DNA of 64,000 bases from a virus, in IMG/VR virus record IMGVR_UViG_3300011443_000002, positions 3,316 to 67,315 of that record; one strand, 5' to 3'. The notes under the pieces are model-generated. The model was not told the DNA's origin. It saw nothing but the letters and a program-made list of their open reading frames with translations, and made no database searches. How positions within the stretch are numbered: the first letter of the stretch is position 1; every line of letters starts with the position of its first letter. Made by a program: the position numbers and the translations under genes. Of this stretch, positions 3,175 through 46,670 are shown piece after piece.

Positions 3175-3404
3175 CAGCGTGCCTCTCGGAGCAGCCGCTT
3201 CCGACGCTCATCCTCGGGAGCCATGCGGAACCAGAGATCACGCTTCGCTTCCTGGAACGTCTTGCGGAGTGGTCCAGCGTCCATCGGCTGACGCGTCCTG
3301 TGCCATCTCCAGCCGTCGGACGTGTGCCGGATCTCGAAGTATCCTCCGGACGTCACGTAATGGCCTGGAGCCTTGCACAGCAGGCGGAAAGGTCGGAAGT
3401 CCAT
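3174..3404 (-). CDS. Hypothetical protein
   Basis: GGAG SD before MDFRPFRLL; coupled on both sides. Confidence 0.7.
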   Translation of the reverse strand: MDFRPFRLLCKAPGHYVTSGGYFEIRHTSDGWRWHRTRQPMDAGPLRKTFQEAKRDLWFRMAPEDERRKRLLREAR

Positions 3405-29249: not shown

Positions 29250-29650
29250 AGCGAGGCACCTCAAGGCGATTCGCGTATCGGCTGGCTGTTAAGTTGGGCC
29301 AGCCGAGCGTGAATAAGATGCTTCGCGAAATGACGTGGCGAGAGTTTGAAGAGTGGGTCGAGTTTTTCCGGCGCGAACCGTTTGATGAAACCAGACAAGA
29401 CTATCGGATCGCGCAACTTGTTGCCACTCTGATCAATGTCAACAGGAGTAAGAAGCAGTCCCCTGTTACCGTTGACAAAGTAAGAATCCTCTTCGGCGAC
29501 GAGGAGGAAGTGAAACCGAGACAGACCGTCAAAGAGCAGCAGCAGATCGGCCAGATGTATGCGAACTTCTTCAACGCATTAGAAGAAGAGAAGCAGGCAA
29601 AGAAGGAGCAAGCTCGTGACCGGCGTAAATCTCGGAACACTATTCGCTAA
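29243..29650 (+). CDS. Tail assembly chaperone frameshift extension (gpT-like)
   Basis: MT-REF-EW-EFF--EPF--R-DYR-A pattern. Confidence 0.85.
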   Translation, partial: RLERGTSRRFAYRLAVKLGQPSVNKMLREMTWREFEEWVEFFRREPFDETRQDYRIAQLVATLINVNRSKKQSPVTVDKVRILFGDEEEVKPRQTVKEQQQIGQMYANFFNALEEEKQAKKEQARDRRKSRNTIR

Positions 29651-32600
29651 GCTGCTGCTGGAAGATGATTTTTCAGCAACGTTCAACAAGTATATCCAGC
29701 AGCAGGATGCAGCGGAGAAGAAGACACAGGCTGTCGCCAATGGCTTCAAAGTCGCGGGAGCGGCGATGGCAGCTTTTGGCGCAGCCTCGATCAATGCTGC
29801 AACCGATTTGAATAAGAGTATGGCAAACATTGCCACTCTTATTCCCAACAACCGAAAGCGGATTGACGAACTCAAAGAGTCTGTGCAGGGACTCTCTGTG
29901 GAACTTGGTAAGTCCACGGAGGATCTCTCGAGCGGTCTCTATGAATTGATCTCGTCCCTCGGAGATAGTGCCGACAACGTGAAGATCCTCGAGATCAACG
30001 CGAAGGCGGCTGCTGCTGGTCTTGCCACAACGCAAGACGCGATCAAATTCACTTCTGCCGTCACCAAGACGTATGGCGATACGTCTGCTGAAGCCTTCCA
30101 GAAGGTTTCGGATCTTGGTTTCCAGGCAGTAAATCTCGGTCAGACAACGTTCCCTGAATTGGCCGAGTCTATCGGCCGAGTGGCTCCGCTCGCGAAGGAA
30201 ACTGGCGTCTCCATGGAGGAGATGTTCGCTGTTGTCGCGACAGCCACAGGAGTCACCGGGAACACGAACGAGGTCATGACGCAGATGGCTGCTGCCATCA
30301 CGGCTCTGGTCTCGCCAACAAAAGATCTTCAGGAAACATATGACAAGCTCGGAGTGTCTGGTGGCGAAGCTCTAATCAAACAGAAGGGACTTGTCGGAGC
30401 TTTGCAGGCTGTTGCAAAGGGAGCACGTGAAGCCGATAAGCCTCTGATTGACTTGCTTGGTCGCAAAGAAGCCTGGATCATTGCATCCTCACTTGCTGGT
30501 GCACAGGCTGAAAGTTTTTCACAGAAACTCGAGTCCATGGGGAAGGTTGCTGGTGCAACCGATACAGCGTTCAAGGAACAGACTCAGGGAATTGCTGCTG
30601 CCGCACATCAGTGGGAAGTGTGGAAACAGCAGGTGAATGTTGCGTTGCAGGATACTGGCGACGCGATCCTCAACAGTCTTACTCCTGCCTTGCAGGCTGC
30701 TGTGATCGGCTTCAGCGAGATGGGTGGAAAGGCTATTGCTTCCGCTGGAGATCTTGCACAAGTTGCGATCGCCGCTAAGATGCTTGGTGGCACTCAGGTG
30801 CTCTCGTCTGTCGGTAGTCTTGCATCCAGTCTGACCGGAGTCACAACGGCTGCACAGGCAGCACGATTCGGCCTGATCGGAATTGGTATCGCGATCGCCG
30901 CATGGTCCCTGGTGAAAGTGTATGAGGCTCTGAGTCTCATCAACGACATCAATAACCAGACCAGCGAAGCACTCAAGGATGCTCAGCGCGATCAGCAGAT
31001 GGCTGCTCGTGCTATTGCCGAAGCACACCGAGCCACAGGACTCGAAGTTAAGAATCATGCGGAGGCTCTCGAGATCCTCCGTGCCAAATCCGCAGGCATG
31101 CGTGGCGAGCTTATGACTGGCCAGCAGATGACCGCGAAGATGGCCGAAGCATGGGCCATTGGTGCAAAGGAAACAGGCAAGTATCAGCAGGCTCAGGATC
31201 AGGTGATCATCTCCGTCAATCGGGCGAAGGTTGCCACACAGGAACAGACGGCTGTGCAGAGCACGCTTGTGACCGAGCTTGCACGAGTGAACAAAGAAGT
31301 CGCAAGTCTTACTGGTGCACAGAAAGAGCAGATCGACGCTGGCATGGCGTTGAACATGAACGCGAAGGACATCTTCGAGTCCATGAAGAAACTCCCGAAG
31401 GGAGTGCAGGCTTCTGAGGCAGCAATCCAGGCTTACATCAATAAGGTCAAGGTTGCCACTAAGGGAACAAAAGATCTAGACGAAGAGCTCAAGAAACTCA
31501 CGGACAGTTTCAGCGGTAAGACACTCATTGACGCTGCAAAGAAAACAGCCGATGCCATGGAGAACATGGTCACGGTGACGAAGCGTGAGTGGGACCAGCT
31601 TGCGCCGATCTTTGGCGATGCCATCGAGAAGATGGTCAAGCGTGGAGAAACAAAGACACCGGAATTCAAGCGTCTTTCTGCCTTGTGGCTGAAGGCCATT
31701 GGCGAAACGATGCAGTCCGCTCCATCGGGAGTTGACAATGATCAGTTCTTCCGGAATTTCTTTGGACAGGATCACGTCAACGTCTGGAGTAAGTTCTTCC
31801 AGCGTAGCACTGAGTCCGCGTTCTCACATGCTGTGCAGAACATCACTGGTCCAGCAACATCGGATTGGACCAAGATGTTCTCCGGTCTCGGAGAGACTGC
31901 GAAAGTAAGTGCAGAGCAGTGGGCACCAAACTTCTTGGACGGTCTTATGACGCGTCTGAATACGAAGGAGTTTGGTGAGAAGCTCGGCATGACGTTGATC
32001 GGTGCGTTGCAGAACGGTGCAAACGCTCGGCAGATCGGTGCCAGCATCGGAGGCACGATCGGCACCGAAGTCGGCAAACAAATCGGTGCTCAGGTTGCCA
32101 GCAGCATCGGAGGACTTGCAGGCGGGATCGTCGGTAATGCGGTCATCCCTGTCCTCGGTGGGATCCTCGGATCCATGCTTGGTGCTTACATTGGTGGTCT
32201 GTTTGGTGGAGGCAGTGAAGAGGCAACAGCAGCCAAACAGATGAGGGATCAGATTCTCCAGAACATCGGAGGCAAGGATTCTCTGCAGCGTTTTCAGGAG
32301 CAGGGAGAGCTTGTTGCGAATGCCTTCTTCCAGGGTCTTCGTGCGCCGCACCAGCGTCCCGGAGTCAGTGACGAAGACATCAACACGATTCTGACTTCTA
32401 ACGATCCTGAGAAGATCCAGAACGCTTGGGATCGGATGCAGCCTGTTATTGAGGCTGTGCAGAAGACATTTGAAGGACTGGCTCTCGCGATCACCGGCAC
32501 CAATCGAATCGCAAACGGTCTGAGCCAGAGTCTTACGAAGTCCATGGAGGAGCAGGTCAAGGCGCACGAAGCAGCGCAGAAGGCTATGCTCCAGACGATG

Positions 32601-33842
32601 AAAGAGGCTGGCGCATCGCAGGAAGAGCTCGACAAGAAACAGGCTTATTTCACAGAGGAAAATAAGAACCGAGTCTTCGCTGCAAATGAAGTGCAGATTG
32701 GATCGTTCAATCGGTTGGCCACGATCGCTGGTGCGGACCTTGTCAACTTGGCTGGTCGCACAGGTGATCTTGTTGGCGCACTCATGCAGTTGCAGCCGAC
32801 GTTTGATGTTCTTATCGAAGCTCGAGATAAGTTTGGCCTGACGGACCAGATGTCCGCTGCCACAGCGGAAGTCCTGCACTTCTACGAAGTAGTTAAGAAC
32901 AACGCGGATGTCTTTGACACGGTTGCTGGCGTCGGTCAGGTGTTGACCGGCTTCGGTGAAGCCATGTTGGAGAACACCGAATTGTTCAACGCTCTCGGTG
33001 GAGAGCTTGCGGCGCAAGTCGGGATCCTTCAGGAGCGTGGCGTCGCGACGAATGAAATCTTCGCGATGATGGCTCCACAGTTGCAGGCTCTGTGGGAAGC
33101 GGCGGAGAGTGGCAAGGTCGTCGTTGATGAAACCACTCAGGCACTTCTTGATCAGGCCGAAGCACAGGGAGTCGTTGGCGAAGCACATAAGGATGTCAAC
33201 GAACAGATCCTCTCGGTTCTTACTGAGATCCGTGATCTGTGGGGAGTGAGCATCCCGTCCGCTGTTGACGAGACTGGACGTGCCATCGAACGTGTGGGCC
33301 GACAGAACGCGGTCACAACGAACCAGTCACGTAATGCTGCACATCAGACAGGTGAGGCATGGGAAGCGGCACAGCGTAAGATCACGGAAGATCTTCGCAG
33401 GCAGCAGGAGATCCAGCGCAATGAGACAGAGCGGACTGTCCGTCACGTCTCGCTGGAGCTCAAGAAAATTCCTAATGACTTCCCGATCAATTGTCGGTGG
33501 GTGCCTCCAGGCGATCTGGAATTGCCTCCACCTCCGACATATGAAGTGCCAGTCGAATTTGAAATGCCGGAAGGTCGTCAGCCATGGGATGAAGGCTATT
33601 ACAATCCCAACACAGGCGAGACACATTATCCGGGACGCACTTCCGCGACTGAGCCTACTGTGCCTGATTCGAATCCCTATCAGGCTGCTGGTATGACTGT
33701 GCCTGCTGGTGATATGGAAGGTGGACGCGGAACACAGACGATCATTGTGGAGCGTGATGGTCAGCGAGACCTTCAGTTCACTGCTGAAAATCTGCCGAAC
33801 TACGTTCGTGTTCGTGCTGGTGCCTCGGTGTTGGGAGCTTAG
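29616..33842 (+). CDS. Tape measure protein (TP901-like N-terminus), 1408 aa
   Basis: Ala-rich helical repeats; G-TTF-ELAE-IG-VAP motif; position. Confidence 0.95.
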   Translation: MTGVNLGTLFAKLLLEDDFSATFNKYIQQQDAAEKKTQAVANGFKVAGAAMAAFGAASINAATDLNKSMANIATLIPNNRKRIDELKESVQGLSVELGKSTEDLSSGLYELISSLGDSADNVKILEINAKAAAAGLATTQDAIKFTSAVTKTYGDTSAEAFQKVSDLGFQAVNLGQTTFPELAESIGRVAPLAKETGVSMEEMFAVVATATGVTGNTNEVMTQMAAAITALVSPTKDLQETYDKLGVSGGEALIKQKGLVGALQAVAKGAREADKPLIDLLGRKEAWIIASSLAGAQAESFSQKLESMGKVAGATDTAFKEQTQGIAAAAHQWEVWKQQVNVALQDTGDAILNSLTPALQAAVIGFSEMGGKAIASAGDLAQVAIAAKMLGGTQVLSSVGSLASSLTGVTTAAQAARFGLIGIGIAIAAWSLVKVYEALSLINDINNQTSEALKDAQRDQQMAARAIAEAHRATGLEVKNHAEALEILRAKSAGMRGELMTGQQMTAKMAEAWAIGAKETGKYQQAQDQVIISVNRAKVATQEQTAVQSTLVTELARVNKEVASLTGAQKEQIDAGMALNMNAKDIFESMKKLPKGVQASEAAIQAYINKVKVATKGTKDLDEELKKLTDSFSGKTLIDAAKKTADAMENMVTVTKREWDQLAPIFGDAIEKMVKRGETKTPEFKRLSALWLKAIGETMQSAPSGVDNDQFFRNFFGQDHVNVWSKFFQRSTESAFSHAVQNITGPATSDWTKMFSGLGETAKVSAEQWAPNFLDGLMTRLNTKEFGEKLGMTLIGALQNGANARQIGASIGGTIGTEVGKQIGAQVASSIGGLAGGIVGNAVIPVLGGILGSMLGAYIGGLFGGGSEEATAAKQMRDQILQNIGGKDSLQRFQEQGELVANAFFQGLRAPHQRPGVSDEDINTILTSNDPEKIQNAWDRMQPVIEAVQKTFEGLALAITGTNRIANGLSQSLTKSMEEQVKAHEAAQKAMLQTMKEAGASQEELDKKQAYFTEENKNRVFAANEVQIGSFNRLATIAGADLVNLAGRTGDLVGALMQLQPTFDVLIEARDKFGLTDQMSAATAEVLHFYEVVKNNADVFDTVAGVGQVLTGFGEAMLENTELFNALGGELAAQVGILQERGVATNEIFAMMAPQLQALWEAAESGKVVVDETTQALLDQAEAQGVVGEAHKDVNEQILSVLTEIRDLWGVSIPSAVDETGRAIERVGRQNAVTTNQSRNAAHQTGEAWEAAQRKITEDLRRQQEIQRNETERTVRHVSLELKKIPNDFPINCRWVPPGDLELPPPPTYEVPVEFEMPEGRQPWDEGYYNPNTGETHYPGRTSATEPTVPDSNPYQAAGMTVPAGDMEGGRGTQTIIVERDGQRDLQFTAENLPNYVRVRAGASVLGA

Positions 33843-37777: not shown

Positions 37778-38251
37778 GTGACTAAGAAGATTGTGCTTGC
37801 TTTCGTTGTGTTGGTCCTGTATGGTCGGCCAGCATTCGCGCAGACTGGTGCCTGTCCATCTGCGATGACGCTTACTGTGAATCCAACTTGGGTGTGCTTC
37901 ATGCCTGATCTGGATCCCACATCAGGACACAACGCAACGGATCCGCTGACTGGCCAGCCTGTTGTTACTCGATATGATCTGCTGTTCTTTGCTCCTGGCG
38001 TGGACTCTGCGACTGGTGCACCAATCCAGACGATCAGCATGGGAAAGCCTACGCTCAACGCTCAGAATGCTGTGTGGCTTCAGCGTGGAGAGCTTGCAGC
38101 AATTCCTGTCGGACAGCAGTATCGTGCTCGTGTCGTGGCTGTTGGTCCCGCTGGAACGTCGCCGAGGTCGGCGGAGTCTAACCCTTTTGGGCGGTCGAGC
38201 CTTCCATTGCCTCGTGCACCGGCACGAGTGTCGGTAACTCCGGAACCATAA
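37778..38251 (+). CDS. Secreted FN3/Ig-like protein (short form)
   Basis: Sec signal MTKKIVLAFVVLVLYGRPAFA-Q; YRARVVAVGPAGTS FN3-like strand. Confidence 0.75.
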   Translation: MTKKIVLAFVVLVLYGRPAFAQTGACPSAMTLTVNPTWVCFMPDLDPTSGHNATDPLTGQPVVTRYDLLFFAPGVDSATGAPIQTISMGKPTLNAQNAVWLQRGELAAIPVGQQYRARVVAVGPAGTSPRSAESNPFGRSSLPLPRAPARVSVTPEP

Positions 38252-38583
38252 TCGGGATTGGCGAAGGAAACATCGGCAGTCCATTTGGCGGCTCGAGACA
38301 GTGGTTCGCGTTTCTTACTTTGACGAACATGCAGGACGCACCTCAGACAGCAACGGTGATCATCAATGTTGATGGCGTGAGCACTCCGGTGCAGTTCACG
38401 CGAACGCTTGGTGCTTGCCAGTCTCTTGCTGTTGGCGTCCATGCGATTCCGGGCATGCCTCCGAATGCAAACTTCCGGACACAAGTCGGATGGCCTGGAC
38501 TCGGGAGTGCTGGTCTGATCATGCGTCCGCATGATGATTTCGGCAGTGTTGTCGTAATGCCTCCGACGTCGGTGTTGCGATGA
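38182..38583 (+). CDS. -1 frameshift extension of the 37778 protein (heptamer C CCT TTT, 38182-88)
   Basis: Frame opens right after TAA 38179-81; no start codon until TTG 38320; ATGA-coupled to the endolysin. Confidence 0.65.
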   Translation, partial: PFWAVEPSIASCTGTSVGNSGTIIGIGEGNIGSPFGGSRQWFAFLTLTNMQDAPQTATVIINVDGVSTPVQFTRTLGACQSLAVGVHAIPGMPPNANFRTQVGWPGLGSAGLIMRPHDDFGSVVVMPPTSVLR

Positions 38584-39122
38584 ACAAGGACGAGAAGGCT
38601 TTCGTTGAAGAGACGCTCCGCCGTGAAGGATGGCCGAAGGTCACTAATCGGCCATCCGATCGCGGAGGTCTTACTAAGGGCGGAATTACTCGAGCCGCAC
38701 TCGAGGAGTTTCGCAAGCGTAAGGTAACGGACGACGAGATCCGGAACCTTACATTAGAAGAGGCTGCTGCCATCTTCTCGTTCCAATATCTGAAACCATA
38801 CATGTGGATTCCAGATACGTCTATCCGAACCTTCTGTGCTGACTTTGCCGTGATGGCCTGGCACGATGATGTGGCGAAGATGCTCCAGACTGCCGCCGGT
38901 GTCACGGTAGACGGTGTCGTCGGAAGCATCACAAAAGAGAAGGTTCTGCTGCTGATCCGCCTTGATCGTGGCGTGTTCTTCAACAAGTTGTTTGACTACC
39001 GCTTGAAGGATCACGTGAAGAACGCTTACGATCCGGATGTTAGACAGTTCCTTGAGACGCATCCATCAACACAACTGAAGAATCTCGCTGGCTGGCTCAA
39101 TCGCATGGCGGAGTGGGTGTAA
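38580..39122 (+). CDS. Endolysin, glycosyl hydrolase 108 family
   Basis: EGWPKVTNRPSDRGGLTKGGIT, then VTVDGVVGSIT peptidoglycan-binding-like motif. Confidence 0.9.
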   Translation: MNKDEKAFVEETLRREGWPKVTNRPSDRGGLTKGGITRAALEEFRKRKVTDDEIRNLTLEEAAAIFSFQYLKPYMWIPDTSIRTFCADFAVMAWHDDVAKMLQTAAGVTVDGVVGSITKEKVLLLIRLDRGVFFNKLFDYRLKDHVKNAYDPDVRQFLETHPSTQLKNLAGWLNRMAEWV

Positions 39123-41032
39123 TGGATAAGATCAAACTCGGTGCTGGTGTTTTTCCGTCCATCACTTTCAACTCCGCGATCAATCGCGTGCAAGTTGCTT
39201 GGCAGGATGGATCGTCTATCGTTCTTACGACGATCCATCCTGACACGCTGGCCAGAGAAGGTGATGACATCGAGTTTATCGGTGGTGGAGCCGGAGCATA
39301 TCCGGAAGTGTATGCTCACGTCTCCGCTCTCTATCTGGCCTACAGAGATGGCGCAGATCCCTTCTTCGGAAGGTTCGGCGTTCACAATAGGACGCCAGAG
39401 GCTCTCGGCCAGATCCACGGCTCGAGACCTTCGGTGCTCGGAGAAGGCAAGTTGGCATACATCTCTGGACCAGCAGCCGAAGGTTATCCAGTCCGCATGA
39501 AAGACGTGACGGCTCTCGGAGCAGGCACGATCGTGCGTCATGCGGCTGGCACCGGACTGTCTCGGATCACTGGTGGACACGTCGTCACGATTGACGAAGA
39601 CCGCTCCTCCGTGGCCGGAATTTCAGATCCCTCGTTTGCTGGCGACGCTGTTGTCGGCACCACGGATCACCAGGGAAAGCCTACACTGAAGGCTCTGCGT
39701 GGAGACCAGCAGTGTTTCATCGGACACGGTGAGGACAGTCAGAATCCTCGCATGTGCACCGATGGAAAGCGTTTCTTCATCGTTGCGTGGGGAGCCACAG
39801 GTGAGGGAGTCCGCTTGTGGCGAGTGCTGCCTGAAGATTTCTCCAATGTTACGAACAGTCCATTCGGTGTTCCGGTAGACACCGGAAAGGCTCTCGGATA
39901 TTTCTTCGGACGTCGGAGCAAATACGGACAGTTTGATCTCGCTGATAACTGTGCGATCCTGCCTCTGGACGCATGGCAGGACAGCGATGGATCGCTGCCT
40001 CCTGATGTTGGCGATCAGATCCGACAGAGCATCCTAGACTCTGGCAGAGCCATCGTCTCCAACACAGCGATCCATCATGCGGCTCCCGAGTGGGCCAGAG
40101 TGATCGGCGTGTTCGCTGGTCGTCAAGAAGGAAACGTCTGGGTCCATGAACCAACAACACGTGCCGAAGCGGATCAACTGGTCAAGGAGACAAGGCAGCA
40201 GATCAAAGACGCTGGTCTGCCTGCACGTCCGGTGATCGTGATCTTGCGTGAGGAGCGTTCCACGGATCCTCAGTTCATTGGCGTGTCGGAAGCTCTCGCT
40301 CCTGAGATCTATTTCACAGAGCCTGAGTCTTCTTATGACCAGCAATTGAACGTCGCTCGAGCACGTATCGCGGACGTGTGCCGAGCCTTCTCGCCGCTGC
40401 CGCTCTACTTGTGTGTGCAGGCATTTGATCGTGCGAAGACTTCGTGGAAGAACAATCCTGCCGCATTAGAAGCAATCCAGCAGGCTGCAAACGAGTCTAT
40501 CACGCAGGGACAGATCAAAGGTTTGATGTGGTTTGCCTTTGCGCGTCCCGGTGGAGTGCTGTCTTATCCTCAGTTGGAACCGTGGCATGTGGCACAGATC
40601 GCTGTGACCCCAAGTCCATCAACGATCGTTGACCCTACGGAGCCTGTAGATCCAGATCCGCCATCGCCATCACATCCGGAGGAAGACGTGAACGAAGCAG
40701 AAGTCCGTTCAGAAGTTTCGGGAGAGATCCATTCGTCCCGAGTGCCACGAGACATCGCACAAGGCGCGATGATCCGATTCAATCACGAAGTCGTGTGGGA
40801 TCGTGATCGTGTCGGCGAAGACAACATCAGCGGAGGTGCGCAGTATATCTATTTCTGGCCAGCATACTACGCTGAGATCGGTGCTCGTCTTGCGAAGGCT
40901 GGTCCGCCACAGGGATCCCCTGAGCAGGTTTACGCCACATGGGGCGATTGGTCTTACCAGGGATTCAAGGCTGCTGCGAACTTCTATTGGAGTGAGCAGG
41001 GAGTCCCGCCGGGAAAAACCCAGACCCTGTAG
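39122..41032 (+). CDS. Multidomain protein: beta-propeller-like, TIM-barrel/GH-like, Pro linker (short form, 636 aa)
   Basis: TAATG coupling; propeller-like repeats; TPSPSTIVDPTEPVDPDPPSPS linker. Confidence 0.75.
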   Translation: MDKIKLGAGVFPSITFNSAINRVQVAWQDGSSIVLTTIHPDTLAREGDDIEFIGGGAGAYPEVYAHVSALYLAYRDGADPFFGRFGVHNRTPEALGQIHGSRPSVLGEGKLAYISGPAAEGYPVRMKDVTALGAGTIVRHAAGTGLSRITGGHVVTIDEDRSSVAGISDPSFAGDAVVGTTDHQGKPTLKALRGDQQCFIGHGEDSQNPRMCTDGKRFFIVAWGATGEGVRLWRVLPEDFSNVTNSPFGVPVDTGKALGYFFGRRSKYGQFDLADNCAILPLDAWQDSDGSLPPDVGDQIRQSILDSGRAIVSNTAIHHAAPEWARVIGVFAGRQEGNVWVHEPTTRAEADQLVKETRQQIKDAGLPARPVIVILREERSTDPQFIGVSEALAPEIYFTEPESSYDQQLNVARARIADVCRAFSPLPLYLCVQAFDRAKTSWKNNPAALEAIQQAANESITQGQIKGLMWFAFARPGGVLSYPQLEPWHVAQIAVTPSPSTIVDPTEPVDPDPPSPSHPEEDVNEAEVRSEVSGEIHSSRVPRDIAQGAMIRFNHEVVWDRDRVGEDNISGGAQYIYFWPAYYAEIGARLAKAGPPQGSPEQVYATWGDWSYQGFKAAANFYWSEQGVPPGKTQTL

Positions 41033-41057
41033 AGCCGGGAGTCCCATCTACTGGGTC
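41011..41057 (+). promoter_or_regulatory. -1 frameshift signal G GGA AAA plus downstream stem-loop
   Basis: Heptamer 41011-17, 5-nt spacer, GACCC-T-GTAGA...TCTAC-T-GGGTC hairpin 41023-57. Confidence 0.8.
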
Positions 41058-42192
41058 ACGGATTGTTGGCTCTGCTCATCCGCAAGATGAAGCATGGGCT
41101 GACGATCGGGACTACATCTCTCCGCTGTCCATCTCGATGCTCTATGCATCCATGGATGGAATTGATCCACGGCATTTGATGGACCAGTGGATGAAACTCG
41201 GTGGAGAGGCTGGACGCTGGATGTCTGGTCGTCTTACGCAGAGTGCCAGCCGCTCAGGCCAAACTCCTGAAGCGGCTGTGGAGCGATATCCAGTCGTGGC
41301 TGGATACTTGCGTGAGCGTTCGCTTCGTGGCCACTCCGTTATCTTCACGGATACGGCAGTGGAATTCGATTTCATGAATCACCTGAGAGCCATCGTGCAG
41401 GCTGCACTTGCAGCCGGTATTGTGGACATCCTCGAGTGCATCAACGAGATTGGCCACAGTTCGCAGAAGCAATTCAGTTGGAGCGAGATTGGTCAGTTTC
41501 TCCAGCAGATTCGGAGCCTCGGTTGGACTCGTGCGCTGACGGCTGGTGCATGGCTCCAGGCAGACGAATTGGTCAACGGAAAATATCCACCAGCCGACTA
41601 CAGAGAAGCAAACGTCTGCGACACACATGGCGCAAGAGGGAATGAGCCTGCATGGGACAACGCGAATCATCTCTTCGCAGAACTTCGCGTGATTCGCAAC
41701 ACGTATCCATGGACTTCCAGACTGTCAGGTGAGCCACAGCGGACGGATGATAACATCATGCCTGCCTCTGTGTTTCCTTACCTGCTCGGTGTGGACGGCC
41801 AGGGATTCAATACGTGGAGCACGCTGCACTGCTCACAGGCTCGAGACTGCCAGATGTTGACAGGCAGTCAGTTGGAAGACGCCAAGCTCTTTCTTCGTGG
41901 CGGTAAGATCCTCCCTCGTGGTCGTTACCACTATGAGAATGCAGACAACACAGGATCGTGGCCTGACAGTCCTGTGGGAAATGCAGCGTTCGTTGAAGGG
42001 CCAGCGTCAAACGGAGACAAGACCGTTTGGCGTGCGCACTCGTTCCGACATCACGGTGGACAGTGGTTCCTCGTGATGAGTGGTCCGGACATCACGCGTC
42101 CGGGATTGGTGCTCCAGAATGGTTTCGTGCTGGATCAGAAGATTGATCAGGTGAGCCAGCACGTTTCTGTTCATACGTTGAAACAGGGATAA
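41017..42192 (+). CDS. Glycoside-hydrolase-like TIM barrel, -1 frameshift extension of the 39122 protein
   Basis: Frame open from the slip site (NPDPVEPGVPSTGSRIVG...AWADDRDYISPLSISM) into ORF 41137; ECINE and SGEP clan-A-like Glu motifs. Confidence 0.75.
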   Translation, partial: NPDPVEPGVPSTGSRIVGSAHPQDEAWADDRDYISPLSISMLYASMDGIDPRHLMDQWMKLGGEAGRWMSGRLTQSASRSGQTPEAAVERYPVVAGYLRERSLRGHSVIFTDTAVEFDFMNHLRAIVQAALAAGIVDILECINEIGHSSQKQFSWSEIGQFLQQIRSLGWTRALTAGAWLQADELVNGKYPPADYREANVCDTHGARGNEPAWDNANHLFAELRVIRNTYPWTSRLSGEPQRTDDNIMPASVFPYLLGVDGQGFNTWSTLHCSQARDCQMLTGSQLEDAKLFLRGGKILPRGRYHYENADNTGSWPDSPVGNAAFVEGPASNGDKTVWRAHSFRHHGGQWFLVMSGPDITRPGLVLQNGFVLDQKIDQVSQHVSVHTLKQG

Positions 42193-42204: not shown

Positions 42205-43047
42205 ATGTTCCAGTTGACCGCAGAAGAATTGGCAGGCATCGTTGCTGTCGTCGTTGGCTTCACAGAGTTTGTCAAACTCTCGAAGTTCGTTGACGAAAAG
42301 TATGGGATGCTCATCGCTGCACTCGTGAGTGCTATCGGCATCGCTGCTTACGCTACGTCCAAGCCAGAACTGGCGTTCAATCGCTTCATGATCTGGCCAT
42401 TCGTTTCCGCTTTCCTCGTTGTCTTGACTGCTGCTGGTGGCGTCTACGGGATCATCCGCTCGACTCGTGGTGCGGATGCCATGGACGCATCTGGCCCACG
42501 AAACGAGCCTCGTGTGCCAATGTGGCTGATCGCTGTTCTTGGCAGCAGCCTGCTGCTCTCAGGCTGTGCAGGCAAGAAACCTGCTGTCCTCGTGGGTCAG
42601 GCCGGTGTTGTGGCTGTGGATTCGATCTATCAGATTCACACAGCCGTTGTTGCGCTGAACCTTCCACGTGAGAAAGAGCTTGCTGTTCAGAAGGCTCTGT
42701 TCAAGGCCAACGAAGCTCTGGCTCCGCTGCCAGGACTGGTGATCGCGATCGACAACGCAACGAAGGCCGGTGAGCAGGCAACAAACGAAGTGGACAAGGC
42801 TCTGGCGTATCTTGCCGAAGGTGCCAAGTTCGTGGAGTCCGTCAGAGGTGATCTCAACGCTGTGCCAACAGCAGCGGCTGTGATCAAGCTGGTGATTCAG
42901 GTGCAGCAGGCGATCACAGCCGCTCAGACTGCGATCGAGCGTGTGAGAGCACCAGTGCCACAGGCACAGCAGATCCGAAATTCTCTGGATGCTGTCGCAC
43001 GTGTGCATTACCTGACGCGTGGATCGAATCTCGTGTTGGCGAACTAA
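42205..43047 (+). CDS. Holin-like three-TM domain fused to an internal lipoprotein signal and helical domain
   Basis: AAGGAG SD; three TMs, then MWLIAVLGSSLLLSG-C lipobox (Cys codon 42565). Confidence 0.75.
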   Translation: MFQLTAEELAGIVAVVVGFTEFVKLSKFVDEKYGMLIAALVSAIGIAAYATSKPELAFNRFMIWPFVSAFLVVLTAAGGVYGIIRSTRGADAMDASGPRNEPRVPMWLIAVLGSSLLLSGCAGKKPAVLVGQAGVVAVDSIYQIHTAVVALNLPREKELAVQKALFKANEALAPLPGLVIAIDNATKAGEQATNEVDKALAYLAEGAKFVESVRGDLNAVPTAAAVIKLVIQVQQAITAAQTAIERVRAPVPQAQQIRNSLDAVARVHYLTRGSNLVLAN

Positions 43048-43339: not shown

Positions 43340-44245
43340 ATGTCTAAACTGTCGATCATACTGCCGTCCCGGAACGAACCTTTCCTGCCTCAGACAATTG
43401 AGGCTGTGCTCAGCAAGGCTCGCGGAGAAGTTGAAGTGATCGCCGTGCTTGATGGATACTGGCCGATTCCATCGCTTCGTGACGATCCTCGTCTCGTGAT
43501 CCTGCATCGTGGCTCTGCTCGTGGGATGCGTCCAGCCATCAACGCTGCTGTCTCCGTGGCATCAGGTGAGTGGCTGATGAAGTTAGATGCACACTGCGAT
43601 GTCTCGGAAGGCTTTGACGAAATTCTCAAGGCCGAATGCGAGAGGAATTGGATCGTGGTTCCTCGTCGCATGTCGCTGGATCCGTTCAATTGGTGCAAGG
43701 AAGAAAATGGTAAGTCACCTGTTGATGCCCACTATCTCTCTTATCCGTTCGAGCGTCCCGGCGATGCATCGTGTGGCCTTCATGGGACAGTGTGGAACGC
43801 TCGTGCTCGTGCACGCCAGCACGTTCTCCTTGATGAAGAGATGTCGTCTCAAGGATCTTGCTGGTTCATGCACCGCGAACACTGGACGCGTCTCGGACCT
43901 ATGGAGGTATCTAAGTATGGAAATTTCATACAGGAATTCCAGGAGATCGGCCTAAAGACGTGGCTCGGTGGTGGACAGGTGATGGTCAATAAGAAGTGCC
44001 ATTATCTCCACTGGCACAAAGGCAAACACGGCCGACAGTATTTCATCTCGAGTAAGGAGATGGCTGCTGGTGCAGCCTTCGCGACACAGTATTGGATGAC
44101 GGACTCGTGGTCCGATCGTGTGCACGATCTCAAGTGGTTTATCGAAAGATTCTGGCCGGTGCCAGGATGGCCGAAGGATCTTGATGCAGCCTTCGCTGAT
44201 GCACGAAACAAACTTGGAGCCAACAGAAAGCTGATCACCGTATGA
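43340..44245 (+). CDS. GT2-family glycosyltransferase
   Basis: LSIILPSRNE, EVIAVLDG, G-R-AIN, LMKLDAH. Confidence 0.92.
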   Translation: MSKLSIILPSRNEPFLPQTIEAVLSKARGEVEVIAVLDGYWPIPSLRDDPRLVILHRGSARGMRPAINAAVSVASGEWLMKLDAHCDVSEGFDEILKAECERNWIVVPRRMSLDPFNWCKEENGKSPVDAHYLSYPFERPGDASCGLHGTVWNARARARQHVLLDEEMSSQGSCWFMHREHWTRLGPMEVSKYGNFIQEFQEIGLKTWLGGGQVMVNKKCHYLHWHKGKHGRQYFISSKEMAAGAAFATQYWMTDSWSDRVHDLKWFIERFWPVPGWPKDLDAAFADARNKLGANRKLITV

Positions 44246-44904
44246 GCCGCGAAACTGACACGCTTGACACTCTCTATACGCTCTATCCAGGCACACCGAA
44301 GATCGTGCCGGACAAGTATGCTCCTCTCGAGATTCCCAACCGTGTTCGTGACGATATCCCAACTATGTTGGATATCTTGTTCAAGGATCAGACTCGAATC
44401 GTTGGTGCAGAGATTGGCGTTGAGCGAGCCGTGTTCAGTGAGGTGCTGCTTCGGTCTCCACGTCTCGAGCTTCATTTGATCGATCCGTGGCAGGCTTATC
44501 CGGGATATCGTGATCACGTGACTCAGGAGAAGTTGAACGGCTTCTATGAACACGTCCAAGAAATTCGCCAGAAGTATCCACAGCGAACAGCCTTGTGGCG
44601 CATGACCAGCGTAGAAGCGGCACGTAACTTTGCCGATTTCAGCCTGGACTTCGTTTACATCGACGGCAATCATACGCTGCCATATGTGATCATGGACCTT
44701 GCAGCCTGGACGCGGAAGGTGCGTCCCGGAGGTCTAATCATGGGCCACGACTATCGGAAGCCGAAGAACAACATCGGCCATCATGTTGTGGAAGCCGTCA
44801 ACGCTTGGACCTATGGCTATCGCATATGTCCGTGGTTCCTGCTCGGTGCCAAAGGTGACGAGCACCGAGATCAGAATCGCACTTTCTTCTGGGTGGCACA
44901 GTGA
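44242..44904 (+). CDS. Class I SAM methyltransferase (Methyltransf_24-like)
   Basis: GAEIGVERA, DFVYIDGNH, KVRPGGLIMGHDY. Confidence 0.92.
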   Translation: MSRETDTLDTLYTLYPGTPKIVPDKYAPLEIPNRVRDDIPTMLDILFKDQTRIVGAEIGVERAVFSEVLLRSPRLELHLIDPWQAYPGYRDHVTQEKLNGFYEHVQEIRQKYPQRTALWRMTSVEAARNFADFSLDFVYIDGNHTLPYVIMDLAAWTRKVRPGGLIMGHDYRKPKNNIGHHVVEAVNAWTYGYRICPWFLLGAKGDEHRDQNRTFFWVAQ

Positions 44905-46670
44905 GCAAGTTGGTTTCCATCTTGATCCCTGCTCGGAATGAAGAGTGGCTCGCTCGCACGGTGGAGGACGTTGTCACCAAGATGAAAGGTGACAGCGAGG
45001 TCATCGTGGTTCTTGACGGTGCATGGGCTGAGCCTCCATTAGACAAGAATGATCGCGTCACGGTGATCAAACTTCCGCATAGCATCGGCCAGAGAGCAGC
45101 CACGAACATGGCTGCTCGAGTGGCTCAGGGAAAGTATGTCATGAAGCTTGATGCTCACTGCCAGGTGGGTGAAGGCTTCGACAAAATCCTTGCAGAGCAC
45201 GGAGACGCTCTCGGCCCGAACGTGTGCCAGATCCCTGCTCAATACAATCTCCATGCGTTCAATTGGGTGTGCACCGGAGGACACAAAGTCTATCAGGGTC
45301 CGACTCCGGTCAACGGTTGCACGTGGAAGCCTAAGAACGCGAAGGTCGAGGATCCGATCTGTGGACTGCCTGCCACTCGAGAGATCGTATGGAAGCGTCG
45401 CACCTCTCGTCTGACAACGTCGTGGCGTTTCGATAAGAGCTTGCATTTCCAGTATTGGGGACAGCATCAGGAGATTCATAAGAAGGAACAGATTCACGAC
45501 GTGATGTCTTGCCTCGGTGCGTGCTGGTTTGTGAACAGAGGTCACTTCTTACTCCTCGGAGGATTAGACGAAGCACACGGATCGTGGGGACAGATGGGCA
45601 CTGAGCTTGCGTGCAAGTTCTGGCTCAGCGGAGGACGTATGGTCGTGAATAAGCATACGTGGTTCGCTCACCTGTTCCGGACACAAGGCGGAGACTTCAG
45701 CTTTCCGTATCCACTCAGCGGCACACAGCAGGCACAGGCTCGAGAGAGAAGTGCATGGCTCTGGAAGCAAGGCAATTGGCCGATGGCAATACGAACGCTC
45801 AAGTCTCTTATCCAGCAGTTTGATCCTCCTGATTGGAAGGAAAAGACCAATGGCCTATCTGGACGCACGACACATCCGACAGTGGTCGAACGAGAGGCTG
45901 GCAGCAGCATTAGTATCAGCGTCAGCCATGCCTTCGACGACTCCGGGCAAGCTCTCAGTGATGTTAGAAGTGATGCGCCGACTAAAGGATGCATCTGGTA
46001 TACTGACCATCGAGCCTCAGAAGCAATCTTGTTCAGTTCACTTGACCATATCCAGCGGGCTGCACCACATTTCCCTCTAGTGCGTGTTGGTATTGAGCAC
46101 GTTCCTTACATCGATGTGCTTGTTCCAAATAGTCAGCGTGGTTATCTGACTATGTTCAAGCAGATCGTTGCTGGTCTGCGAGCACTCAAGACAGATATTG
46201 TGTTCTTTTGTGAGCACGACGTGCTGTATCATCCGTCTCACTTCGAGTTTGATCCACCGAAGCGAGATGTGTATTACTACAACATGAATGTCTGGAAGGT
46301 GGATGTCTCGAGCGGTCGTGCTGTGACCTACAGGACGAAGCAGACGTCCGGCCTTGTTGGTTACAGAGAGCTTCTGTTGGAACACTACACGAAGCGAGTG
46401 GAGCTTGTGAAGCGGAACGGCTTCTCTCGCAAGATGGGATTTGAGCCTGGATCCCATGGACGTTCGGAGCGTGTGGACGATATCAAGTCTGAGGAATTCA
46501 GATCAGAGTTTCCCAACATTGATCTGAGACACAGCAAGAACCTGACGCCAACACGGTGGATGCAGGCTCAGTTTCGTGATCAGCGTAACTGTCGGGACTG
46601 GAAGTTGAGCAACGCAGAAAACATCCCTGGCTGGCCTGGATTGGCGAGCTTCTTGGAGAGCATCAAATGA
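44901..46670 (+). CDS. GT2 glycosyltransferase fused to a second GT-A domain
   Basis: VSILIPARNE...MKLDAH; second domain IWYTD...FFCEHDVLYHPSHF. Confidence 0.9.
   Translation: MSKLVSILIPARNEEWLARTVEDVVTKMKGDSEVIVVLDGAWAEPPLDKNDRVTVIKLPHSIGQRAATNMAARVAQGKYVMKLDAHCQVGEGFDKILAEHGDALGPNVCQIPAQYNLHAFNWVCTGGHKVYQGPTPVNGCTWKPKNAKVEDPICGLPATREIVWKRRTSRLTTSWRFDKSLHFQYWGQHQEIHKKEQIHDVMSCLGACWFVNRGHFLLLGGLDEAHGSWGQMGTELACKFWLSGGRMVVNKHTWFAHLFRTQGGDFSFPYPLSGTQQAQARERSAWLWKQGNWPMAIRTLKSLIQQFDPPDWKEKTNGLSGRTTHPTVVEREAGSSISISVSHAFDDSGQALSDVRSDAPTKGCIWYTDHRASEAILFSSLDHIQRAAPHFPLVRVGIEHVPYIDVLVPNSQRGYLTMFKQIVAGLRALKTDIVFFCEHDVLYHPSHFEFDPPKRDVYYYNMNVWKVDVSSGRAVTYRTKQTSGLVGYRELLLEHYTKRVELVKRNGFSRKMGFEPGSHGRSERVDDIKSEEFRSEFPNIDLRHSKNLTPTRWMQAQFRDQRNCRDWKLSNAENIPGWPGLASFLESIK

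Follow-up and report, generated by a model that had tools for sequence, protein, structure and literature searches.

How is the second of two adjoining open reading frames (ORFs) translated when it appears to have no start site of its own? This question is raised by a tailed-phage genome in the IMG/VR virus record IMGVR_UViG_3300011443_000002, of which we analysed 64,000 nucleotides (nt; positions 3,316 to 67,315 of the record, hereafter the window). A gene for a protein of 636 amino acids (aa), ORF1, is followed there in the −1 frame by ORF2, which is called from an ATG at 41137. An earlier note, made by a model from the letters alone, had suggested that an unannotated −1 frameshift joins the two. 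Comparison with homologous loci indicates that ORF1-ORF2 very probably carries a programmed −1 ribosomal frameshift signal.

The end of ORF1 and the −1 frame behind it

The elements on which this reading depends are listed here in window coordinates.

39122..41032, plus strand. ORF1, zero-frame product of 636 aa (ATG at 39122, stop TAG at 41030-32)
40998..41003, plus strand. AGGGAG, a Shine-Dalgarno (SD)-like hexamer 7 nt 5' of the heptamer (tentative; from the sequence and alignment A3)
41011..41017, plus strand. Slippery heptamer G_GGA_AAA, in phase with ORF1 (X_XXY_YYZ; from the sequence)
41018..41022, plus strand. Spacer ACCCA of 5 nt, equal in length in all 11 loci compared
41023..41057, plus strand. 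Putative stimulatory hairpin, arms 41023-33 and 41047-57 with a 13-nt loop (from the local fold and the covarying hairpins of homologues)
41030..41032, plus strand. Zero-frame stop TAG of ORF1, within the 5' arm (from the sequence; the TAG of relatives lies 9 nt earlier, at the boundary of spacer and stem)
41017..42192, plus strand. Extension in the −1 frame, 391 codons and a stop, with a Pro-rich linker, a predicted clan GH-A (glycoside hydrolase) domain and a C-terminal beta-sandwich

ORF1 starts with GGAG 5-8 nt 5' of ATG 39122, and its homologues align from the same Met. Its 3' end reads CCG GGA AAA ACC CAG ACC CTG TAG, so that an in-phase slippery sequence of the X_XXY_YYZ type is present at 41011-17. 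The hairpin of the window consists of 10 base pairs (bp) and one U.U mismatch; its local fold has an energy of −20 kcal/mol and a z-score of −2.5, and one of 200 shuffled sequences folded as well. The same nucleotides also encode D-P-V-E...T-G-S of the linker in the −1 frame. The hexamer AGGGAG at 40998-41003 may act as an upstream stimulator; it is not kept in homologues.

The −1 frame is open from 40996 and reads GKNPDPVEPGVPSTGS. No ATG, GTG or TTG occurs in it before 41137, 40 codons past the slip site, and no purine-rich SD sequence stands 5' of ATG 41137; the starts of ORF1 and of the next gene, at 42205, each have a GGAG. The predicted fusion would contain 632 + 391 = 1023 aa, VPPGK being followed by NPDPVEPG at the junction, and its junction peptide would be VPPGKNPDPVEPG. 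A promoter-like site was not found between the ORFs, and the sole terminator-like site is on the minus strand; thus the hairpin does not look like an intrinsic terminator of the plus strand. An Rfam scan gave only a sub-threshold chance match on the minus strand, and the signal is not a described RNA family. The earlier note had pointed to the end of ORF1, the heptamer, the 5-nt gap and a stem-loop at 41023-57, and all of them are where it had placed them; the sequence likewise agrees that the −1 frame runs open from the slip site via the Pro-rich linker and 40 codons into an ORF at 41137 that has no SD sequence.

Conservation of the signal among homologous loci

Relatives of ORF1 are rare: 14 were found among 5.8 billion proteins, most of them 605-636 aa long. 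We compared the DNA of eight loci with an ORF1 relative, of L009 (from the ORF2 scan) and of L014 (the best ORF2 match), which together with the window gave a set of 11 loci (the window, L001-3, L006-11 and L014). A tblastn search of ORF1 and ORF2 against 50,697 GenBank phages gave no match, and scans of viral contigs and genome contigs with the ORF2 alignment gave no relatives. The ten homologous loci are independent metagenome assemblies in which ORF2 is only 18-56% identical to that of the window, which excludes a sequencing error or a private mutation as the cause of the pattern that they share.

In 11 of 11 loci ORF2 lies in the −1 frame relative to ORF1, and this frame is open across the ORF1 stop, overlapping ORF1 by 25-289 nt. 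For about 12-72 codons after the stop the ORF2 frame of these loci contains no ATG, GTG or TTG; in-frame GTGs before that stretch occur only in L007, L008 and L010, inside ORF1. Every locus also has an in-phase Z_ZZN tetramer exactly 5 nt before a hairpin of 9-11 bp. The tetramer is C_CCU in six loci, C_CCC in three, U_UUU in L009 and A_AAA in the window, and it is part of a perfect X_XXY_YYZ heptamer in five (G_GGA_AAA, G_GGC_CCU, A_AAC_CCC and, twice, A_AAC_CCU). In most relatives ORF1 ends in ...C_CCY CAG UAG, which is directly followed by GACCCUGGA...UCCAGGGUC. The earlier note had asked whether homologues keep the heptamer and stem, and they do in the sense that 10 of 10 need a −1 shift at the homologous position, with a tetramer or heptamer, the 5-nt spacer and a covarying hairpin.

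These slip sites are of a kind known to be prone to shifting. In E. coli the six shift-prone tetramers rank A_AAG >> U_UUC > U_UUU > C_CCU = C_CCC > A_AAA (PMC4066793), and all four tetramers used by the 11 loci are among them. Heptamers of the form V_VV.A_AA.R, the class to which G_GGA_AAA belongs, are among the most efficient in that organism (PMC4066793). When the loci were aligned without gaps (alignment A3), the A_AAA of the window fell on the C_CCU column, with a span of 50 nt in both the window and L003; MAFFT applied to a longer stretch (alignment A7) placed a 5-nt gap in the window, and we rejected this arrangement, to which the ungapped A3 is equally parsimonious. The window has lost the UAG from the spacer and terminates 9 nt later, with the geometry of tetramer, 5-nt spacer and hairpin kept, which ties the hairpin to the slip site and not to the stop.

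Covariation was computed on alignment A3 (10 loci) for a helix of 11 pairs. Paired cells amounted to 95.1%, compared with 78.3% in shuffles, and none of 500 shuffles reached the observed value; the covariation score was 0.424 versus 0.139. Compensatory double changes were seen at 6 of the 11 pairs, and sliding the partner by one column reduced pairing to 50-58%. Covariation is strongest at three column pairs, 23-53, 26-50 and 29-47, and in each of them both partners are third codon positions of the −1 frame. This frame encodes D-P-G in one arm and P-G-S in the opposite one, and pairs of first and second positions are essentially invariant. Hairpin lengths are 29, 32 or 35 nt, L014 included, so that insertions and deletions occur only in multiples of 3. 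Such wobble-restricted covariation and length changes show that translation in the −1 frame extends over the hairpin region. Thus a structure within the ~5-9 nt downstream that suit a stimulatory element is present in all 11 loci, and the ORF behind it overlaps ORF1, has no initiation site of its own and shows coding constraint that begins at the shift site. Because the paired RNA and the constrained −1-frame protein come without a start codon, ribosomes would have to enter from ORF1. As judged from these comparisons, it is the homologues, not the window alone, that settle that the signal is beyond chance.

The loop of the hairpin may have a partner of its own.

41064..41075, plus strand. Segment complementary to the hairpin loop and 5' arm (tentative; from the fold and the loop pairing)

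This segment is complementary to the loop at 41034-41046, and equivalents were seen in L002, L003, L006, L007, L009 and L011. Bases on the 3' side of the loop (GUCCC, UGACCC, ACCCCG or AGCCC) are in most loci complementary to GGGAC, GGGUCA, UGGGGU or GGGCU, 7-13 nt past the stem, and the changes on either side of a CCC:GGG core look compensatory. The downstream partner overlaps an invariant Gly codon, and the duplexes are more stable within their own locus than across loci (permutation p ~0.014). These observations are suggestive of 41064-75 as stem 2 of an H-type pseudoknot or as part of a competing hairpin.

In the mechanism that we propose, ribosomes on ORF1 would reach G_GGA_AAA (41011-17) while the hairpin 41023-57 stands at the mRNA entrance. 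A fraction of them would slip back by one base, Lys-tRNA moving from AAA to AAA and Gly-tRNA from GGA to GGG, and would go on in the −1 frame to make the 1023-aa protein, in which the Pro-rich linker joins ORF1 to the clan GH-A domain. Ribosomes without a slip would stop at TAG 41030-32 and yield the 636-aa protein. The gene, which is translationally coupled to that of a GH108 endolysin, would thus give some copies that carry the second catalytic domain and others that lack it.

Several points weigh against this proposal. A minimum-energy fold of the longer stretch 41011-75 favours an overlapping alternative hairpin at 41029-75, and the hairpin of the window, homologous to the others, has the U.U mismatch. 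Three relatives have slip sites with poor P-site re-pairing (G_GAC_CCU, A_GAC_CCU and C_AUC_CCC), and shifting on C_CCY tetramers reached only ~0.3-1% when reporters were assayed in E. coli (PMC4066793), so that the long form could be very minor. In L013 an ORF2 homologue is a separate gene (see below), and fusion is accordingly not obligatory for function. The slip itself is something that we infer, as we do its efficiency, the fixed ratio of the two forms that the earlier note had expected, the substrate of the enzyme and its role in lysis.

The two proteins, their arrangements and rival explanations

The structure model of ORF2 (predicted local distance difference test, pLDDT, 95.4; predicted template modelling score, pTM, 0.94) is a (beta/alpha)8 barrel followed by a C-terminal beta-sandwich. 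It matched the GH140 apiosidase 8t9w (Z 26.5; root mean square deviation, rmsd, 3.2 Å over 333 residues), the GH164 beta-mannosidase 6t5o (Z 25.7) and the GH5 structure 4qfu (Z 24.9). The VIA matches to these three families have an rmsd of 3.2-3.3 Å over 329-339 residues at a sequence identity of 7-9%, and Foldseek agrees. Invariant in 27 sequences are N138-E139, which follow strand 131-137, the 4th of the model, and E234, which follows strand 229-232, the 7th. An N-E after beta-4 and an E after beta-7 are the hallmark of clan GH-A, and the model therefore assigns ORF2 to the clan GH-A (4/7) TIM-barrel glycoside hydrolases. No named sequence family could be given: ORF2 had no Pfam or PHROG match, and its profile gave only marginal matches to PDB sequences (E ~0.05, GH5 and GH2), around the N-E motif.

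The model also bears on where translation of ORF2 begins. ATG 41137 is residue 36 of the model, a beta-hairpin and barrel strand 1 (residues 16-35) precede it, and the structural alignments to GH140, GH164 and GH5 begin at residues 8-14; a start at 41137 would thus cut the barrel short. Public gene calls in 10 of 10 homologous loci start ORF2 at the first ATG, TTG or GTG, 12-72 codons past the ORF1 stop, and because of these late starts database proteins such as P0017-P0021 are without the first barrel strand.

ORF1 was modelled with a pLDDT of 83.7 as a 6-bladed beta-propeller (~aa 1-246) and an alpha/beta domain (~250-500), followed by a disordered Pro-rich linker and a C-terminal helical bundle (~528-628). 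The propeller has Z 17-19 to Neu2 and GH33 and also Z 15-17 to WD40 proteins and lectins, and the likeness is thus not specific; it dominated the fold searches made with the whole model. Pfam and PHROGs scans of ORF1 gave nothing usable, and its profile found nothing among PDB sequences. The earlier note had described both ORFs as hydrolase-like and had expected an additional GH-like barrel in the ~1023-aa form. The barrel is borne out for ORF2 by the model and the fold matches to clan GH-A, while the description fits ORF1 only loosely, whose sialidase-like propeller and alpha/beta domain match no sequence family.

An exhaustive search with ORF2 gave 38 representatives, among which seven proteins of 927-1005 aa (P0023-28 and P0040) carry the ORF2 domain at their C-terminus; these distant relatives provide the in-frame fusion that the earlier note had proposed to look for. 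P0016 (950 aa), from another search, is a further in-frame fusion with a C-terminal ORF2 domain. The N-terminal domain of the fusions matches the ORF1 profile (hhalign probability 94%, E 1.4e-7), and the C-terminal helical domain of ORF1 matches P0016 and P0027 just before the linker, so that the in-frame proteins are collinear with the predicted fusion. At the one in-frame junction examined, in L012, we detected no slippery site, stop or hairpin (z +0.83). A split arrangement is seen at L013:4582-5616, where a distant ORF2 homologue (25% identity, E 1e-8) forms a gene of its own; it starts from a GTG that shares bases with the ORF1 stop (GTGA), and the protein begins at the conserved ...RIVG motif and has no Pro-rich linker. 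The sequences thus point to fused, frameshifted and split arrangements within the ORF1-ORF2 family. P0007 (1060 aa; L004:3001-6183) was considered as another in-frame fusion and rejected, since BLASTP showed that it shares only the central ORF1 domain (57% identity over ORF1 aa 204-508). In its C-terminal half, which carries the GH5-like motif VNEPYQNGW, no similarity to ORF2 could be detected; this suggests shuffling of hydrolase modules in the family.

With these data the other explanations of the frame relation can be weighed. Two ordinary genes would be a simple one, ORF2 having its own start, either ATG 41137 or a non-canonical codon 5' of it, and the hairpin having some other role, for example in mRNA stability or translational coupling. 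It has in its favour that L013 has just such a separate gene with a GTGA overlap and that gene callers split the pair in every locus. We nevertheless consider it very improbable, because there is no SD sequence before 41137 and no start codon in ~12-72 conserved codons of the 11 loci, because barrel strand beta-1 is encoded upstream of 41137 and in-frame fusions are known, and because the wobble-restricted covariation and the multiple-of-3 indels reflect translation of the hairpin region in the −1 frame. The earlier note had named independent initiation at 41137 with no junction peptide as one result that would overturn it, and such a start is unlikely on the same grounds. A miscount in the A5 run of the window (41014-18) during assembly or sequencing would also produce the observed frames, since an A6 would give a plain in-frame fusion with an identical 1023-aa protein. 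This too speaks against a shift in the window, as homopolymers are the usual site of single-base errors, the junction peptide would be the same and other lineages have in-frame fusions. We give it very little weight: being one base 'short' there is common to all ten relatives, over a span that corresponds in each (50 nt for 17 codons in L003 and the window), the perfect in-phase heptamer, 5-nt spacer and retained 10-bp hairpin fit a functional signal, the in-frame fusion examined has lost the hairpin, and A5 is a short run. An A6 in the window would, moreover, leave the result for the family unaffected.

The frame could instead be changed at the RNA level if RNA polymerase stuttered on the A/C run and added one base in part of the transcripts, and the slip sites are indeed short homopolymers, A5 in the window and C3-C5 in relatives. 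Productive transcriptional slippage is generally known to take runs of ~7-9 or more (reviewed in PMC5009743). The runs here are shorter, six loci have only CCC, and a hairpin at a fixed 5 nt together with strict codon phasing is a feature of ribosomal slippage, which leaves stuttering a highly improbable account. Decay of a once-fused hydrolase gene, broken by a frameshift and with a silent ORF2, would be compatible with in-frame ancestors, which are plausible. Since ORF2 is open with an invariant N-E and E across 11 loci at 18-56% identity, since the break is always −1 at the same site and since the alignments show purifying selection on ORF2, a pseudogene is scarcely credible. Two further candidates were rejected. 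Translational hopping between GACCCT copies flanking the stop does not apply to L003, L006 and the window, which are without the repeat, and termination-reinitiation at the UAG does not agree with the lack of a start-like codon nearby and with the geometry that the window keeps despite its moved stop. A programmed ribosomal shift thus remains the reading that we prefer.

Genomic setting, known systems and meaning

The window contains the large terminase (14794), portal (16323), major head protein (20892) and tape measure (29616-33842) genes of a tailed phage, all on the plus strand. The ORF1-ORF2 gene lies ~5 kb 3' of the tape measure, separated from it by small ORFs and then by an endolysin gene that it directly follows. 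Its immediate neighbours are the following.

38580..39122, plus strand. Gene for a GH108-type endolysin (Pfam PF05838 Glyco_hydro_108, E 6e-14)
42205..43047, plus strand. Gene after ORF2 with its own GGAG and ATG (from the sequence)

The stop TAA of the endolysin (39120-22) shares bases with ATG 39122 of ORF1 (TAATG). Peptidoglycan hydrolases adjoin the gene in the window and in relatives (GH108, Hydrolase_2, Peptidase_M15_4 or SLT). The protein of 42205..43047 had no match in a family scan; in L008 the gene at the equivalent position, which the ORF1-ORF2 gene precedes, has a weak Phage_holin_4_1 match and is thus holin-like. Tail-chaperone shifts occur in a small ORF pair between the major tail and tape-measure genes, whereas 39122-42192 comes after the endolysin and its products are of 636 and 1023 aa. 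The setting is a lysis module and not the tail-chaperone slot, in keeping with the earlier note, which had placed the shift outside the usual chaperone context.

Directly 3' of the lysis genes, at 43340-46670, the window has two GT2 glycosyltransferase genes and one Methyltransf_24 gene; a GT2 gene likewise follows the holin-like gene of L008, and in L006 and L007 the place is taken by an MT-A70 methyltransferase. Two ORFs just 5' of the endolysin, 37778-38251 and 38320-38583, have coordinates that place the second in the −1 frame of the first (region 38164-38583). If a shift between them is real, there would be two frameshifts in one lysis module.

The coupling to the GH108 endolysin in a lysis module suggests that the products are most likely an accessory lysis enzyme cutting an envelope polysaccharide other than peptidoglycan; a role as a virion-associated depolymerase is possible.

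The signal resembles several known systems in part. OrfA/OrfAB of IS3/IS911 likewise combine a slippery tetramer or heptamer with a zero-frame stop just downstream and a hairpin or pseudoknot, and there, too, the shift adds a whole catalytic domain so that two activities come from one mRNA (PMC4066793). They differ in that the product is a transposase and not a phage lysis-module glycoside hydrolase, and most members of the present set have C_CCY in place of A_AAG or A_AAA_AAG and no conserved upstream SD sequence. With the lambda G/GT tail chaperones the loci share a phage −1 shift on G_GGA_AAR that gives short and long forms, and a frame relation that is kept across very divergent phages when the sequences are not. 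Unlike them, the gene studied here is not located between tail tube and tape measure, its extension is a 390-aa enzyme domain and its hairpin is strong and conserved. E. coli dnaX, which encodes tau and gamma, has a slippery heptamer with Lys codons, a hairpin ~5-6 nt downstream and an SD-like upstream stimulator, and its shift truncates the protein. Heptamer and hairpin are alike in the two cases, whereas an AGGGAG-like upstream element is found in the window only and the shift here would extend the protein by 391 residues.

In the capsid proteins of T7/T3 (gene 10A/10B), Lactobacillus phage A2 and Listeria phages A118/A500, a −1 shift near the gene end adds a C-terminal extension to some copies, and among related phages the same capsid extension is either encoded in frame or reached by a shift (PMC5009743). 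What is added there to a virion protein is a structural, Ig-like part, whereas here a catalytic domain would be added to a lysis-module protein. As for the domain itself, it shares with GH140, GH164 and GH5 the (beta/alpha)8 barrel, the C-terminal beta-sandwich, the N-E at the end of beta-4 and the E at the end of beta-7, and differs from them in having 7-9% identity and no Pfam family. Mycobacteriophage LysB is a second lysis enzyme beside the endolysin; it is an esterase that attacks an outer, non-peptidoglycan layer. This is a functional analogy only, as LysB has no homology to ORF2 and the lysis role here is only putative.

Literature searches gave no report of a frameshift in this type of gene. 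The frameshift, previously unannotated, is well supported; the kind of recoding is known, whereas the gene family and the genomic context are new for it. One speculation, which we regard as unlikely, is that the shift is a device for lysis stoichiometry or timing, in which the C-terminal helical domain of ORF1 oligomerises short and long chains with a set fraction bearing GH-A. Lineages would then toggle between in-frame (100% long), frameshift (mixed) and split (L013) arrangements to tune the dose, and the conserved pairing of the loop with the downstream segment would form an H-type pseudoknot within the palindromic code of the D-P-G...P-G-S linker. A related possibility is that C_CCY-CAG-UAG, read by Pro-tRNA, makes the ratio respond to the translational state of the host late in infection.

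Programmed frameshifts of tailed phages are mostly known from tail chaperones and from capsid or tail decoration, and the ORF1-ORF2 shift would provide an enzyme of the lysis module with a further, complete catalytic domain. At least 11 uncultured phages, with proteins that fit no annotated family, have the signal in common, and databases hold truncated, probably non-functional models of the ORF2 hydrolase. The hairpin is an unusually clean case in which RNA pairing and protein coding can be read from the same wobble positions, and the fused, frameshifted and split forms provide a natural series for asking why a frameshift is kept.

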